DNA of 20,000 nt from the IMG/VR virus record IMGVR_UViG_3300008117_000046, one strand, 5' to 3'. Source of the stretch: an uncultured virus (IMG/VR IMGVR_UViG_3300008117_000046) (Duplodnaviria; Heunggongvirae; Uroviricota; Caudoviricetes). Of the stretch, positions 1-20,000 are shown piece after piece (position 1 is the stretch's first letter; every line of letters starts with the position of its first letter). The notes below the pieces were generated by a model. It had not been told where the DNA came from and made no database searches. It saw nothing but the letters and a program-made list of their open reading frames with translations. The translations under genes and the position numbers were made by a program.

Positions 1-378
1 GAATCGTTTTTGTCTATGCGCCCGTGACTTAAAAGGAATGTGGCGGTTGATACGCCGTCCCCTTCTACCCCGTCGCATTAATCGCCGATTATCCATGCGT
101 TCTCTTACTCGCTTAAAGGGAAGTTCTAAGTGAGCTTTCCAGAGAGTGAAAAGAGAGGATTGAACGCCAATTCCAGAGAATAATTTACCCGGGTCAATAC
201 CAATGGCAATCGGTTGGGTTTTACTATCGGAAGGCTCGGTGATTAACTGGACATAGAAAATATCTAAGTCGTTGAATTTACCGATAGCTTTTCCTTCCTT
301 AATCCACCGTCTAGCCCGACTAGGTTTAGTCGGCATTAACGGTTTTCCGTCTTTTGAGATTACAGGTACTCTTTGCAT
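1..378 (-). CDS. isrB: IsrB/IscB-family OMEGA RNA-guided nuclease (RRXRR/PLMP domain), N-terminal 126 aa; continues past the left edge
   Basis: Not in the ORF track. Manual translation from ATG at 378: [31 protein letters not shown]...[17 protein letters not shown]...[23 protein letters not shown]. This shows the PLMP motif, RuvC-I (GIDPG) and an Arg-rich bridge helix. Presence or absence of HNH (IscB vs IsrB) is not visible; IsrB is preferred from recalled resemblance to cyanobacterial RRXRR proteins. Confidence 0.88.
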
Positions 379-594
379 GGGAGATAATCCTTAAGAGTAA
401 AGTTTAAGTCCCTTAGCCCACCAAACAAACTATGTCTTGTCTTACAACGTCTCACCAATGAGACTTAGAGGGAATCCGAACTAGGGAAGTATTCAGAGGT
501 CTGTAAGATTGTTCGGCTCAACGGGCTAGTCTCTACTTGCGTTGCCTAAATTGGTCTAGGCAAGCCCCGTCTCTTTTAGGGTGGGGTTAGTGAC
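379..594 (-). ncRNA. omegaRNA (HEARO-like) scaffold, copy 1, including element left end
   Basis: About 215 nt immediately upstream of the PLMP ORF. Begins GTCACTAACCCC...GGGGCTTG (hairpin), has internal stems (e.g. GTCTCA-ccaa-TGAGAC at 449-464) and ends AAGGATTATCTCCC-ATG. Homologous to 734-948 and 2742-2957. Confidence 0.85.
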
Positions 595-733
595 CAGTTA
601 GCTGGACATAGAAAATATCTAAGTCGTTGAATTTGCCGATAGCTTTTCCTTCCTTAATCCACCGTCTGGCCCGACTGGGTTTGGTGGGCATTAACGGCTT
701 TCCGTCTTTTGAGATAACAGGAACTCTTGCCAT
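587..733 (-). pseudogene. Truncated isrB/iscB copy 2 ([16 protein letters not shown]...FYVQLT), interrupted at 595/594 by element copy 1
   Basis: Nearly identical protein to the first 45 aa of the 1..378 ORF, with many synonymous differences. Homology stops abruptly where the GTCACTAACCCC end of copy 1 begins. The true start is the ATG at 733, not 784. Confidence 0.85.
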
Positions 734-948
734 GGAGATAATCCTTAAGAGTAAAGTTAAAGTCCCTTTCCGCAACACAATCAAGATGTCTTGTCTAACA
801 ACGTCTCACCAATGAGACTTAGAGGGAATCCGAACTAGGGAAGTATTCGGAAGTCTGTGCCAGATTGTGTCTCGATGCGGTAGTCTCTACTTGCGTCGCC
901 TAAATTGGTCTAGGCAAGCCCTACCCTAAAAAGGACGGGGTTAGTGAC
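734..948 (-). ncRNA. omegaRNA scaffold, copy 2
   Basis: Same 5' GTCACTAACCCC end, same core (GAATACTTCCCTAGTTCGGATTCCCTCTAAG) and same AAGGATTATCTCC-ATG 3' end as copy 1. Confidence 0.85.
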
Positions 949-1116
949 ACTCCAGATATAGGGTAGGGCTACAGACAATCCCAGAGATAGAGTAGGGTTA
1001 ATGACCATTATCAGCCCTGTCCTTTTAGGGTAGAGTTAGTGACAGATCTTGCTCCTGTCTTTTTAGGGCGGGGTTAGTGACATTTACTCCTGTCGCCCTA
1101 AGGCGGGATTAGTGAC
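949..1116 (-). repeat. Tandem array of five degenerate copies (28-38 bp) of the element left-end/omegaRNA 5' hairpin
   Basis: Minus-strand units start at 1116 (GTCACTAATCCCGCCTTAGGGCGACAGGAG), 1081 (GTCACTAACCCCGCCCTAAAAAGACAGGAG), 1043 (GTCACTAACTCTACCCTAAAAGGACAGGGC), 1005 (GTCATTAACCCTACTCTAT) and 976 (GTCTGTAGCCCTACCCTAT). The full scaffold follows at 948. Confidence 0.8.
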
Positions 1117-2198
1117 TAAGTCTGAATTTCGAAGCTTTCGGGATCTATGCCTTTATTGAATTCGATTACAGCTTCGCGGGCTGAGGTGTGCTTGGGATCA
1201 ACACGTACTGCATGGTAGTCATTAGTGCTGGGGCAACGCATGGTTAGGATATGCGCGTCCTCGCCACCGAAGTCACCACGGATGATGTGTAACTCGTACT
1301 CATTACCGTAACCTACGTAGCTAGTAGTATTATAGGTGCTGATGATCTCACTATCCAGGCGCGATAGAATATTCTCGTAGCCCAGCGCCTCAATGAGAAT
1401 ACGGCGATGCTCAGAGTTCATGCCCTTCTCATCATCAAGTAACCATTTGGGATCCCAGGTGGAGCTATGACACTGCATGAAGGCCGGTAACGGGGTACCG
1501 TGCCATAACCACAATTCAACGCCATCAGAGAACTTAATTGCGGGCTCACCATCGCAATGAATATCGCCGTCCAGAGTATAATGTACCTTGGGCCGCTCAC
1601 ATACAATACATAACTCCTCATAGGTGTATACCCACGATAAGTTTTCAGCAATGAGCATGTACTTATCGTAATCCTCCATAGTCACGCCGAGTACCTCGAC
1701 GCTGAAGTTAGCGAATGCAGCAAAGCTCATACGGCACTCGTAAGAGAAGTGACCATTAGCAATATAATTGCTACACTCCTTATCCTTAATAGGATCAATG
1801 GGGCCCCGCTCTGCAACGTAAGCATCGACGAGTTTCTGGAGTACAGCCTCGTTCTTAGGAGTAGCGGGCTTACGCTTAAAGAACTCCTTGATTAATGTGA
1901 GTTCAGTCTTAGTAAACTTAGTTTTAGTCTTATTACCCTTAACGATACTCTGCTCTTCCTTCTCAGCTTTATTGAGAAGAGCAATAATACTGGCCGCCAT
2001 GATGGGCGAGCTAGTGAAGATAGTACGCGGACAGTCGAGATCTCCTAAGTCACAGTGTTTCTTGAGTAGGGCATATAGTTCAGTAACTGCTTGGCGGGCT
2101 AGCACTTTATCGAAGGGGCGATCCACCATACGGATCCAGCGCTCCTTGTAGGTAGGAATTAGCTTTTCATGTTCCGGAGTTAATTCAAGATAAGTCAT
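1116..2198 (-). CDS. DUF6745-like protein, 360 aa
   Basis: C-terminal IVCERP...IHCDGEPAIKFSDGVELWLWHG...NSEHRRILIE..GYE...MRCPST..YHAVRVDP..SAREAV pattern is typical of this family. Confidence 0.7.
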   Translation of the reverse strand: MTYLELTPEHEKLIPTYKERWIRMVDRPFDKVLARQAVTELYALLKKHCDLGDLDCPRTIFTSSPIMAASIIALLNKAEKEEQSIVKGNKTKTKFTKTELTLIKEFFKRKPATPKNEAVLQKLVDAYVAERGPIDPIKDKECSNYIANGHFSYECRMSFAAFANFSVEVLGVTMEDYDKYMLIAENLSWVYTYEELCIVCERPKVHYTLDGDIHCDGEPAIKFSDGVELWLWHGTPLPAFMQCHSSTWDPKWLLDDEKGMNSEHRRILIEALGYENILSRLDSEIISTYNTTSYVGYGNEYELHIIRGDFGGEDAHILTMRCPSTNDYHAVRVDPKHTSAREAVIEFNKGIDPESFEIQT

Positions 2199-2257
2199 TG
2201 AAAAATTAGGTTTGAAATCCCGCCCCTTAGCGATAGTGGAGGGCGGCTTTACATAAA

Positions 2258-2378
2258 TTAATAAGAAACAATTAAAACGCTAGAACGACGAATTAACTGA
2301 ATCTTGCTAACAGTTATCTATTCCAATTGTCTCCAACTGGTATCGCTTACAGATAGCTGTTTTTCCATTAACATAACC
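2258..2378 (-). pseudogene. Degenerate 3' end of an isrB gene
   Basis: Reads GYVNG / (frameshift) KQLSVSDTSWRQLE*ITVSKIQLIRRSSVLIVSY*. This resembles the recalled C-terminus of cyanobacterial RRXRR/IsrB proteins and lies just before the right-end hairpin. Confidence 0.6.
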
Positions 2379-2384
2379 AAGTCT

Positions 2385-2741: not shown

Positions 2742-2957
2742 AGGAGATAATCCTTAAAAGTAAAGTTAATGTCCCTTCCCGCAACACAATCAAGATGTCT
2801 TGTCTAACAACGCTTTACCAATAAAGCTTAGAGGGAATCCGAACTAGGGAAGTATTCAGAGGTCTGTGCCAGATTATGTCTCAATGCGGTAGTCTCTACT
2901 TGCGTTGCCTAAATTGGTCTAGGTAAGCCCTACCCTAAAAAGGACGGGGTTAGTGAC
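2742..2957 (-). ncRNA. omegaRNA scaffold, copy 3
   Basis: Near-identical to copy 2 (734-948), with compensatory changes in one stem (GCTTTA-ccaa-TAAAGC at 2812-2827). Confidence 0.85.
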
Positions 2958-5117: not shown

Positions 5118-6067
5118 TAGCGGTGTATATTTGGCTTAGCCCGGCATGGTATATCGGAGCCCAGCACATCCTTAAGTATATAGTTACCTGCGCTCTCCAT
5201 CTGATATAATGCAGCAGCGGCATAACGTTGTGCCAGCATAAACTCATCGAGCTGCTGACCAGTATAGTAGTCCTGATCCAAGATAGGTACTACTCGAGAG
5301 TTAACTACCTGCCATGCTACATAGCCCGGCACTAGTAGATTGATTTCATCGTGAGTAGCGTTGATAATACTAGCCCGCCGTTCTCCTGCATCTATAGTCT
5401 CTATAGCCTGCCTTACTCGCGGTAGTGAGATCTTCAGCATCTCACTACCTGAGCTCTGGATAACAGAATTAACTGCCTTTCGCCGCGTAGTACTTTTACC
5501 AGCTATACCCTTAGCATTATCCTCATTGACATTGATGAAGCGGCCCATAGCGCTACGAACCCATCGAGTACGGGAACATAGGCTCCCCGTAATCTCAATC
5601 CAGGTATAGAGGCCATGGAAACCTGTGAAGTACTGCTTGAGTAGACGCCCTGCCTCCTTGTCATCACAATTGAGGTCTGCTGCTAAACTACTAGCGCTAC
5701 CGCCATATATCACTTTGAAGTTCATGATCTTACCCTTCTTCCGCCAGGGCGAGATGACAGGATCATCTGCACTCACAGTCCAGGGCTCGTTTACCATGCG
5801 CCGTTCTATATCCTTATTCAGGAACGTACTAGCGACTAGATGCTGATCTACCTTGGGGTCAGTATAGGTTAGACCCTCAGGCGACAGGGGGAGGGGCCGT
5901 ATACCTCTATGGTACTCATCTTCGAGTACGTAAATCTCTGTAATAGCAGAATCCTTACTGAAGGCCCCCGCCAATCTTAATTCTTGACTCGAGAAGTCTA
6001 CGCTTACCCATGCATAGCCTGGTGGGGCCTGCAGAGCAAAGCGACTATTCATCTTTATTTTCGTCAT
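5105..6067 (-). CDS. polA: Family A DNA polymerase, C-terminal (palm/fingers) half
   Basis: Motif A SVDFSSQELR, motif B RKKGKIMNFKVIYG, RKAVNSVIQSSGSEMLK, motif C THDEI. Confidence 0.92.
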   Translation of the reverse strand: MTKIKMNSRFALQAPPGYAWVSVDFSSQELRLAGAFSKDSAITEIYVLEDEYHRGIRPLPLSPEGLTYTDPKVDQHLVASTFLNKDIERRMVNEPWTVSADDPVISPWRKKGKIMNFKVIYGGSASSLAADLNCDDKEAGRLLKQYFTGFHGLYTWIEITGSLCSRTRWVRSAMGRFINVNEDNAKGIAGKSTTRRKAVNSVIQSSGSEMLKISLPRVRQAIETIDAGERRASIINATHDEINLLVPGYVAWQVVNSRVVPILDQDYYTGQQLDEFMLAQRYAAAALYQMESAGNYILKDVLGSDIPCRAKPNIHRYWSH

Positions 6068-19445: not shown

Positions 19446-19887
19446 CTAAGTAGTAAGCTTTGGTTTTATCCATAACGTCGATCCATCAGATGTCCAGCAT
19501 AGAATCGCAAGCTCAGGCCACTTCATCTGCAGAGCTCGGAGCTCTGCAGATGAGAATACTGACTCCTGCCCTTCGTATCCAAGGATTTCATCTAAAGGCT
19601 TAACCTGATTGTTACTGATATCATTGTTGTAAGCTAATGTGTGGGTTTTATTATCCATGCCGCGGATAGATAGCAACCACTTCTCGAAATCATCCGTAGG
19701 GCAATTATTATCCTCTAGAATTACAGCTAGATCATCTGCTGATACCCACAGTCTATCTGACTCCATGAGCTTTGAGTAAATACTACAATTGAGTACCTCC
19801 CCTAAGGACACAGCGTCTATATACACATTACTGTTATCAGCTAGTCCGTATACAACCCTGTCATTATAAATTGCCTTTAATTCTTCC
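19446..19887 (-). pseudogene. 3' part of a hypothetical phage gene interrupted by an IS605-type insertion
   Basis: The open frame (EELKAIYNDRVVYG...) continues up to the IS end at 19888. The ORF-track start at 19973 lies inside the IS. Confidence 0.6.
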
Positions 19888-20000
19888 TTGACATCCTCAC
19901 CGCCGTAAACGGACGGTGATTCCCAAACCTCACGATTTAGGTTTCTGCTTCTTTCCCTTGCGGGGTTCCGCACCTGCCTTAACAGATTTACTCTGTTCTG
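19888..20000 (-). mobile_element. Right end / reRNA (omegaRNA) of an IS200/IS605 tnpB element; remainder lies beyond the right edge
   Basis: Minus strand ...AAACCTAAATCGTGAGGTTTGGGAATCACCGTCCGTTTACGGCGGTGAGGATGTCAA|: subterminal hairpin TCACCG..CGGTGA followed by GGATGTCAA, the typical TnpB element terminus. Confidence 0.82.

Follow-up and report, generated by a model that had tools for sequence, protein, structure and literature searches.

A nested IsrB element in a Ma-LMM01-like Microcystis phage carries a presumed omegaRNA guide derived from isrB itself

We looked at a 20,000-nucleotide (nt) stretch of DNA from the uncultured virus IMGVR_UViG_3300008117_000046 (the window, meaning the whole stretch that was analysed), at the left end of which an isrB gene and its omegaRNA adjoin the remains of a second isrB copy. 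By megablast, the closest group to the window is that of the Ma-LMM01/MaMV Microcystis phages (Fukuivirus), with 92-94% identity across both halves. We read the locus as a non-autonomous IS200/IS605-type OMEGA element, made of an omegaRNA, isrB and a 59-nt tail, in a Ma-LMM01-like Microcystis phage that we call our phage below. As judged from the sequence, its omegaRNA has a real self-family guide, with an unusual target, the element's own gene family. We favour as the probable explanation of the whole that an element inserted at a target-adjacent motif (TAM) in a sister isrB, that the nested state collapsed, and that a guide against the isrB family was left. The junction taken by itself can be explained more firmly: its anatomy is read directly, and a genuine TAM-directed insertion of one IsrB element in the isrB of another, now collapsed, very probably gave rise to it.

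All the genes around the isrB locus are on the minus strand. Along that strand, the end of the 196L homologue is followed by three short omegaRNA stubs, omegaRNA-2, a truncated isrB (the copy 2 stub), omegaRNA-1 and isrB copy 1, which runs leftwards. The window holds the first 126 codons of copy 1 (1-378, minus strand; Pfam RRXRR, 6.7e-36), and the gene continues to the left of it. The assembly is one contig of 20,823 nt, of which the window covers bases 622-20621, and the left end of this contig falls within copy 1. The full gene, coding for 365 amino acids (aa), was therefore read from the IMG/VR contig L003 (L003:3233-4330), which is 100% identical to our phage across 4,231 nt and holds copy 1 complete. 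In front of copy 1, the omegaRNA-1 scaffold (379-594, minus strand) extends over 216 nt, from GTCAC to the base preceding the copy 1 ATG. Its presumed guide, TTTCTATGTCCAGCTAACTG (595-614, minus strand), corresponds to isrB codons 40-46 plus one base; the guide length of 20 nt was taken from DtIsrB, the IsrB of Desulfovirgula thermocuniculi. This guide is the end of the copy 2 stub (595-733, minus strand; RRXRR, 2.9e-11), a piece of 139 nt (46 codons and one base) whose reading frame terminates at a stop within scaffold 1 and which is 96-99% identical to single-copy alleles, the last bases excepted. Next come the omegaRNA-2 scaffold of the interrupted resident element (734-948, minus strand; HEARO, 29.4 bits) and the three short omegaRNA 5' stubs (949-1116, minus strand), each composed of GTCACTAAC and a hairpin. 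The outer end of the stubs is the boundary of the element with the stop codon of the 196L homologue. The two units, each an omegaRNA with the start of an isrB, lie head to tail, spaced 354-355 nt apart. The initial annotation had claimed that omegaRNA-1 is flanked on its 5' side by isrB coding sequence and that copy 1 has mismatches at this place, and reading the sequence confirms both. The counterpart of the target site in copy 1 (236-259, minus strand) matches the guide at 16/20 positions: it reads TTTCTATGTCCAGTTAATCA (240-259) followed by CCGA (236-239), with mismatches at guide positions 14, 18, 19 and 20.

The stub ends exactly where sister alleles carry ATGA. At the junction point, isrB of MaMV-CH02 and MaMV-DH01 reads CAG CTA ACC G/AT GA/A CCT (Q-L-T-D-E-P, slashes enclosing the ATGA), as anticipated by the proposal that a missing ATGA restores Q-L-T-D-E. 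Among the 91 loci scanned, CTAACCG/ATGA/ACC was also found in seven chromosomal loci of host Microcystis and in three viral loci, and CTAACCA/CTGA was present instead in five further host loci and in Ma-LMM01, the allele of the Ma-LMM01 type matching the guide at 18/20 positions. The isrB of MaMV-CH02 contains just four ATGA in 1101 nt, one of which begins at nt 140, where the stub ends. The placement of the junction at one of so few sites is thus beyond chance. Moreover, in contigs of the DNA run X1 the sequence beyond the junction point is CGATGAACC, indicating that uninterrupted ATGA-type alleles coexist there with the nested form.

The same motif was observed at the right end of the elements. 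In L003, the element tail consists of the 59 nt between the isrB stop codon and ATGA, and ATGA directly follows this tail in 12/12 distinct flanks (18 anchored element ends plus site B). The element is found at site A (196L/uracil-DNA glycosylase (UDG) homologues) in our lineage and in L090, L094 and L095, and at site B (194L/192L homologues) in Ma-LMM01, MaMV-DC, MaMV-CH02 and MaMV-DH01, so that each phage group shows the empty site of the other. Empty site A reads GACTTAAGT directly followed by ATGACAGC in 5/5 other phage loci; in L094, where the site is occupied, GACTTAAGT is followed by GTCAC. Empty site B, seen in our phage, reads TTTAT directly followed by ATGAATAC. Since ATGA is single at each empty site, it is part of the target and not of the element. 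The element thus inserts beside a fixed ATGA without target-site duplication, a trait of the IS200/IS605 type. Subterminal hairpins are present at both ends, one after GTCACTAA, which covaries, and a GC-rich one in the 59-nt tail. As candidates for the transposase, Y1_Tnp matches were found six times in each of two host genomes and once in Ma-LMM01, and tnpA is not adjacent to the element.

DtIsrB nicks targets with ATGA and TTGA TAMs, and two cyanobacterial IsrBs are reported in the same paper to use an NTG TAM (PMC9581776). The suggestion that ATGA fits the TAMs already reported is in agreement with the flanks, all 12 of them, with both empty sites and with the conservation in copy 1 of the residue pair that reads the motif (see below). 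We are highly confident that ATGA is both the insertion motif and the TAM. As the insertion motif of Microcystis IsrB elements it is not new but already published: a host element (open reading frame (ORF) with 207 bp upstream and 59 bp downstream) is described as inserted at ATGA in gp49 of phage Mic1 (PMC11237433).

ATGA was also observed at the start of four consecutive phage genes, the homologues of 197L, 196L, 195L/UDG and 192L (2195-2198 and 2738-2741 in the window; L003:4390-4393 and 5398-5401). Element ends or remnants directly precede 196L, 195L/UDG and 192L, and a solo scaffold, omegaRNA-3, directly precedes 197L. With ATGA at gene starts, a start codon plus A makes a natural landing site that keeps the downstream ORF intact.

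The protein encoded by copy 1 resembles DtIsrB from end to end (structure 8DMB, residues 2-361, 3e-43). The full protein matches Pfam RRXRR at 1.2e-52, and no HNH family was found in it in Pfam at E up to 1. IscB structures match copy 1 along its first ~135 residues only, and the NCBIfam model guided_IscB scored 110 bits, under its cut-off of 175. The motifs are PLMP at 13, IDPG at 61, FEYV at 163, HAND at 236 and KRLGQ at 342, the catalytic residues being assigned by alignment with DtIsrB only. KRLGQ aligns with KRIGQ of DtIsrB, the site of R323 and Q326, which read the TAM bases G3 and A4 of NTGA (PMC9581776), and the R..Q pair is conserved. With PLMP, a split RuvC, no HNH and a fitting size, copy 1 is predicted to be of the IsrB type, that is, an OMEGA protein with RuvC only.

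On the RNA side, an Rfam search of the window at the gathering threshold gave no match. At an E-value threshold, HEARO (RF02033) gave three full-length matches (model 1-211) of 32.2, 29.4 and 27.4 bits, compared with a gathering score of 83. The 32.2-bit match, full length and below the gathering score, is omegaRNA-1, and HEARO model position 1 coincides with the G of GTCAC. We aligned 45 sequences, the three scaffolds and 42 upstream regions of cyanobacterial or viral isrB genes, and observed compensatory changes at 39/49 predicted pairs. The first scaffold base itself covaries with its stem partner (U-A in 24 omegaRNAs, G-C in 20, A-C in one). HEARO position 1 and this covarying first base place the boundary between guide and scaffold at 594/595. 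Between omegaRNA-1 and omegaRNA-2, which are 81% identical overall, the stems show paired changes. omegaRNA-1 is 91% identical to the omegaRNA of L093 and 78-82% to all others; omegaRNA-2 is 95-97% identical to those of L090, L094, L095 and L096, and omegaRNA-3 is 93% identical to omegaRNA-2. These results indicate that the structured RNA directly upstream of isrB, on the same strand and with covariation, is an OMEGA RNA.

Some further features of the scaffolds were recorded. In the first omegaRNA hairpin (560-586 compared with 915-940), the loop of one copy is the reverse complement of the other and the stems are kept; in the GC-rich hairpin of the 3' tail (L003:4331-4393) the loop is likewise inverted between copies with the stem kept. 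A single-sequence fold of the guide with omegaRNA-1 (z = -2.1), in which the guide pairs with part of stem 1, was not relied on. A scan for promoters and terminators gave counts no higher than those of shuffled sequences, the only terminator-like hairpin being that of the 198L homologue, in front of omegaRNA-3.

A short series of events would account for the locus. OMEGA elements would insert immediately 5' of ATGA, in gene orientation, and the flank upstream of the scaffold would become the guide. One insertion at the ATGA of isrB nt 140-143 would then give the junction at 594/595 as well as a guide from isrB codons 40-46. In this respect, a nested insertion with an isrB-derived guide is largely an ordinary outcome of how the elements insert. 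The 3' part of the interrupted isrB would most likely have been lost by recombination between the directly repeated isrB copies; alternatively, the cassette would have been copied from a nested donor and never been complete in our phage. The nested state thus collapsed, or was imported already collapsed.

For the guide to act, omegaRNA-1 would be produced by read-through transcription from the co-oriented upstream genes. These genes matter, as a guide of the IscB type depends on transcription that reads into the element from outside (bioRxiv 10.1101/2023.03.14.532601). ORF171 of Ma-LMM01 is transcribed during infection, according to a preprint. The intact IsrB would bind omegaRNA-1, and the resulting ribonucleoprotein (RNP) would nick natural sister isrB alleles. 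That it does so seems to us an open contest, with the chances at or a little under even. Copy 1 would escape because of its four mismatches and the CCGA replacing ATGA, which make self-sparing credible at the level of the sequence. The initial annotation had suggested seeking the guide in Microcystis genomes. In these (one per species), alleles matching at 19/20 positions and followed by ATGA are present, but a perfect match is absent.

Several points weigh against an insertion that left a live guide. The initial annotation had predicted that copy 2 resumes after the inserted element, and this was not found: L003 shows instead the 59-nt tail, ATGA and the UDG gene, of which this ATGA is the start codon. 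Wherever the five junction contigs reach that far, the complete nested state was not seen in them, and they lack the remainder of copy 2. Not every junction is clean, since at the left junction of the whole unit our phage has 3 nt fewer than the empty site. The Y1_Tnp search found no TnpA in MaMV-CH02 or in a 78-kb fragment of our lineage. omegaRNA-1 is L093-like and the isrB body is not, the two being of different lineages. A target with 20/20 matches and ATGA was found neither in viral contigs, nor in genome contigs (one genome per species), nor in phage records, and all the closest sister alleles mismatch guide position 19, which is the second base counted from the TAM. For DtIsrB, a single mismatch was reported to be tolerated at position 1, 3 or 19 counted from the TAM, position 2 not being named. 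Homing is established for TnpB and IscB, whereas a 2026 review (PMC13565253) does not list IsrB, a nickase, among the proteins shown to home. Finally, contigs from the RNA runs carry neither 5' ends nor strand.

Part of this could mean that the junction is a fossil. The insertion would be real, but the guide would now be a dead relic, the RNP would be without a live target and the element would be phage baggage; the stub would have drifted, with T at guide position 19, and no matching allele would circulate. We take this seriously, while holding it somewhat less probable than its opposite. It is consistent with the 20/20 target being in none of the collections searched, with a junction limited to one phage lineage (five contigs), and with relatives (L090, L094 and L096) that have the insensitive CCGA allele without omegaRNA-1. 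It sits less easily with an intact isrB ORF that keeps its catalytic and TAM-reading motifs, or with the stems of omegaRNA-1, which have been preserved via compensatory changes. Alleles with 19/20 matches and ATGA are, besides, common in hosts and sister phages and also occur in the same DNA run, and DtIsrB tolerates some TAM-proximal single mismatches.

The loss of the 3' part of copy 2 leaves room for a variant of the origin story that is compatible with TAM-directed insertion at its core. omegaRNA-1 and the start of isrB would have been copied from a nested donor, by recombination or by nick-stimulated gene conversion, and the copying would have been resolved early because the incoming isrB is homologous to the recipient gene downstream of the break. 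In L090 and L094, both close relatives, there is a single element, whose scaffold is of the omegaRNA-2 type and whose gene is of the copy 1 type. Against these two, only ~290 nt of our phage look foreign, namely the last bases of the stub, omegaRNA-1 and ~66 nt of isrB, and copy 1 is 98-100% like theirs from isrB nt ~70 onwards; the three to nine omegaRNA 5' stubs per array would also suggest repeated overwriting from the 5' side. The same pattern would however equally be expected if L090 and L094 were deletion derivatives of a nested ancestor such as our form, with a crossover in the 60 nt common to the stub and copy 1. We regard such an import as rather unlikely. Two other observations were set aside. 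An argument for a crossover, based on the 3' half of copy 1 being 95-98% resident-like and its middle 86-92%, was dropped when a control showed the same profile for any pair of phage and host alleles. A joint skipping 354 nt (L003 2689 to 3044), seen in one RNA and one DNA run, falls within a 24-nt stretch common to both scaffolds and is ambiguous.

Going further, omegaRNA-1 with the first ~139 nt of isrB might be a self-propagating super-parasite of its own family, an idea that we consider improbable. The RNP would nick ATGA-type isrB genes of co-infecting phages and of the host, and repair from the phage copy would write the cassette in. With its target split and CCGA in the downstream copy, a converted allele would be immune, and the stub arrays would be the fossil record of repeated overwriting of element by element.

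Could the locus have formed without transposition, by tandem duplication or illegitimate recombination, the placement of the junction being a coincidence? The units do lie head to tail, 354-355 nt apart, and the remainder of copy 2 is missing, an outcome that the initial annotation had listed as refuting the insertion. The two omegaRNAs are however only 81% identical, compared with flanks that are 97-100% like those of relatives, and the duplication would hence not be recent; omegaRNA-1 is closest to that of L093 (91%, the others 78-82%). Furthermore, the junction falls exactly at scaffold position 1 and exactly 5' of the ATGA of sister alleles, and both copies of the CTAAC microhomology are retained. 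Such an origin is very improbable in our view.

The junction between the stub and omegaRNA-1 is also found in two IMG/VR contigs (L003 and L005) and in three metagenome contigs (L103-L105; 3/3 matches), of which L104 is a 97% variant carrying the same junction and L105 derives from a 161.5-kb contig. An assembly chimera made from repeated omegaRNA and isrB sequences, which would fit contig ends breaking within OMEGA nuclease genes and Logan contigs that are fragmented across the region in all four runs, is thereby reduced to a negligible probability, since the junction is identical in L003, L005, L103 and L105 and recurs in the variant L104. The data of the DNA and RNA runs were Logan contigs (four runs), fragmented across the isrB locus, and no single listed piece covers the whole stretch. 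Word depth in the two RNA runs was much higher over omegaRNA-like sequence; it was not used, since such depth gives no ranking of genes and sequence from host copies maps there as well. The right end of the contig (G000:C1:20554-20823, that is, window 19933-20000 and beyond) breaks in the C-terminus of a TnpB (Pfam Cas12f1-like TNB, 5.4e-18). Both ends of the assembly thus lie within OMEGA nuclease genes, where a break is to be expected because they are repeats. The ORF left open at the right end of the window (19449-20000) had no Pfam match, the TnpB fragment being in a different frame.

The locus can be compared with several known systems. DtIsrB and its omegaRNA (8DMB, PMC9581776) share with ours the PLMP-RuvC-TI architecture without HNH, the size of ~350-365 aa, an omegaRNA that precedes the gene and begins with the guide, and a TAM of the NTGA/ATGA type, which in ours is predicted from the sequence. 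The scaffold is ~216 nt here and ~260-280 nt in DtIsrB. Unlike DtIsrB, our element is carried by a cyanophage, would take its guide from an isrB gene and is known from its sequence alone. A closer parallel is the insertion of the host IsrB element orf2067 into Mic1 gp49 (PMC11237433). Both cases involve a Microcystis-type IsrB, a 59-bp tail, insertion at ATGA and, as target, the gene of another OMEGA nuclease in a phage. There the target was tnpB-like and the event was seen in culture; here it is isrB, the guide matches the element's own family and, unlike in the orf2067 case, the remainder of the interrupted gene is lost. Elements of the phages with an insertion at the 194L/192L site belong to the same family (85-93% DNA identity) and have the stub array and the ATGA junction rule, but each is single, with an uninterrupted isrB that keeps the ATGA or CTGA target.

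The logic of a TAM and a guide derived from the flank is known from IscB elements (bioRxiv 10.1101/2023.03.14.532601). As in homing of the TnpB/IscB type, the guide here is the flank outside the transposon end and the TAM is the target motif of the transposase. In such homing the nuclease attacks alleles without the element, whereas IsrB only nicks, and the 'empty site' is in our case the coding sequence of a sister element and not a neutral locus. There is also a likeness to intronless homing (SegF and others, PMC13565253), in that a nuclease borne by one phage would cut the sensitive allele of a related phage in the same infection, while differences at the site protect its own allele; unlike there, recognition would be by an RNA guide and a TAM. 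In the literature searched, outside which lay most subscription journals and supplements, we found no report of an isrB-derived IsrB guide or of stub arrays.

Every Ma-LMM01-like locus (L001, L002, L009, L010, L090, L094, L095, L096 and ours) has three to nine omegaRNA 5' stubs before the full scaffold. The stubs, of 27-95 nt, are each made of GTCACTAAC and a hairpin, and both their number and their sequence vary between phages. Elsewhere, zero or one stub was found in nine loci of host Microcystis and none in three other viral contigs. Beyond ~20 nt, the stubs diverge from intact scaffolds. One idea is that the arrays arose from repeated re-invasion or overwriting at the 5' side.

Other remains of OMEGA elements were observed further along the window. 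omegaRNA-3 (2742-2957, minus strand; HEARO, 27.4 bits) is a solo scaffold fused, exactly where the ATG of isrB would be, to the ATGA start of a 118-aa ORF (2385-2741), a 197L homologue unrelated to isrB. In MaMV-CH02 and MaMV-DL01 this ORF is present without the scaffold. omegaRNA-3 might serve in trans as a solo guide RNA, or it might be a 5' leader that has been borrowed. In addition, an isrB 3'-end remnant with its tail (2195-2380, minus strand; remnant and tail proper 2199-2380) adjoins the ATGA start codon (2195-2198) of the 196L homologue and, by comparison with L001 and L008, consists of the last ~120 nt of isrB and the 59-nt tail. The same remnant is preceded in MaMV-CH02 and MaMV-DL01 by a ~60-nt omegaRNA 5' piece, which makes it an internally deleted derivative resembling a miniature inverted-repeat transposable element (MITE). 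Ma-LMM01 and MaMV-DC have neither the isrB remnant nor the 197L gene. Finally, in phage Mic1 (L011; MN013189.1, 23333-23522) we observed an omegaRNA-like scaffold that begins with GTCACTAAC and is 80-86% identical to ours; no isrB is annotated beside it in this record.

Altogether, the locus provides a natural read-out of the insertion motif and TAM of this IsrB clade, with 12/12 flanks, two empty sites and one intragenic site, together with three scaffolds in which the omegaRNA structure has been preserved despite their divergence. The Ma-LMM01-like phages appear as a busy OMEGA arena, with two element sites, stub arrays, a solo omegaRNA fusion and a deletion derivative. Should the guide be inert, the locus is simply a documented instance of an insertion sequence landing in its own kind. 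If it is active, it would represent a natural OMEGA RNP programmed against the coding sequence of a sister element, hence virus-borne competition or gene drive between copies of one transposon family, and a nickase would have been shown able to drive such conversion. Were the super-parasite idea true, there would be an RNA-guided arms race among OMEGA elements within phage genomes.
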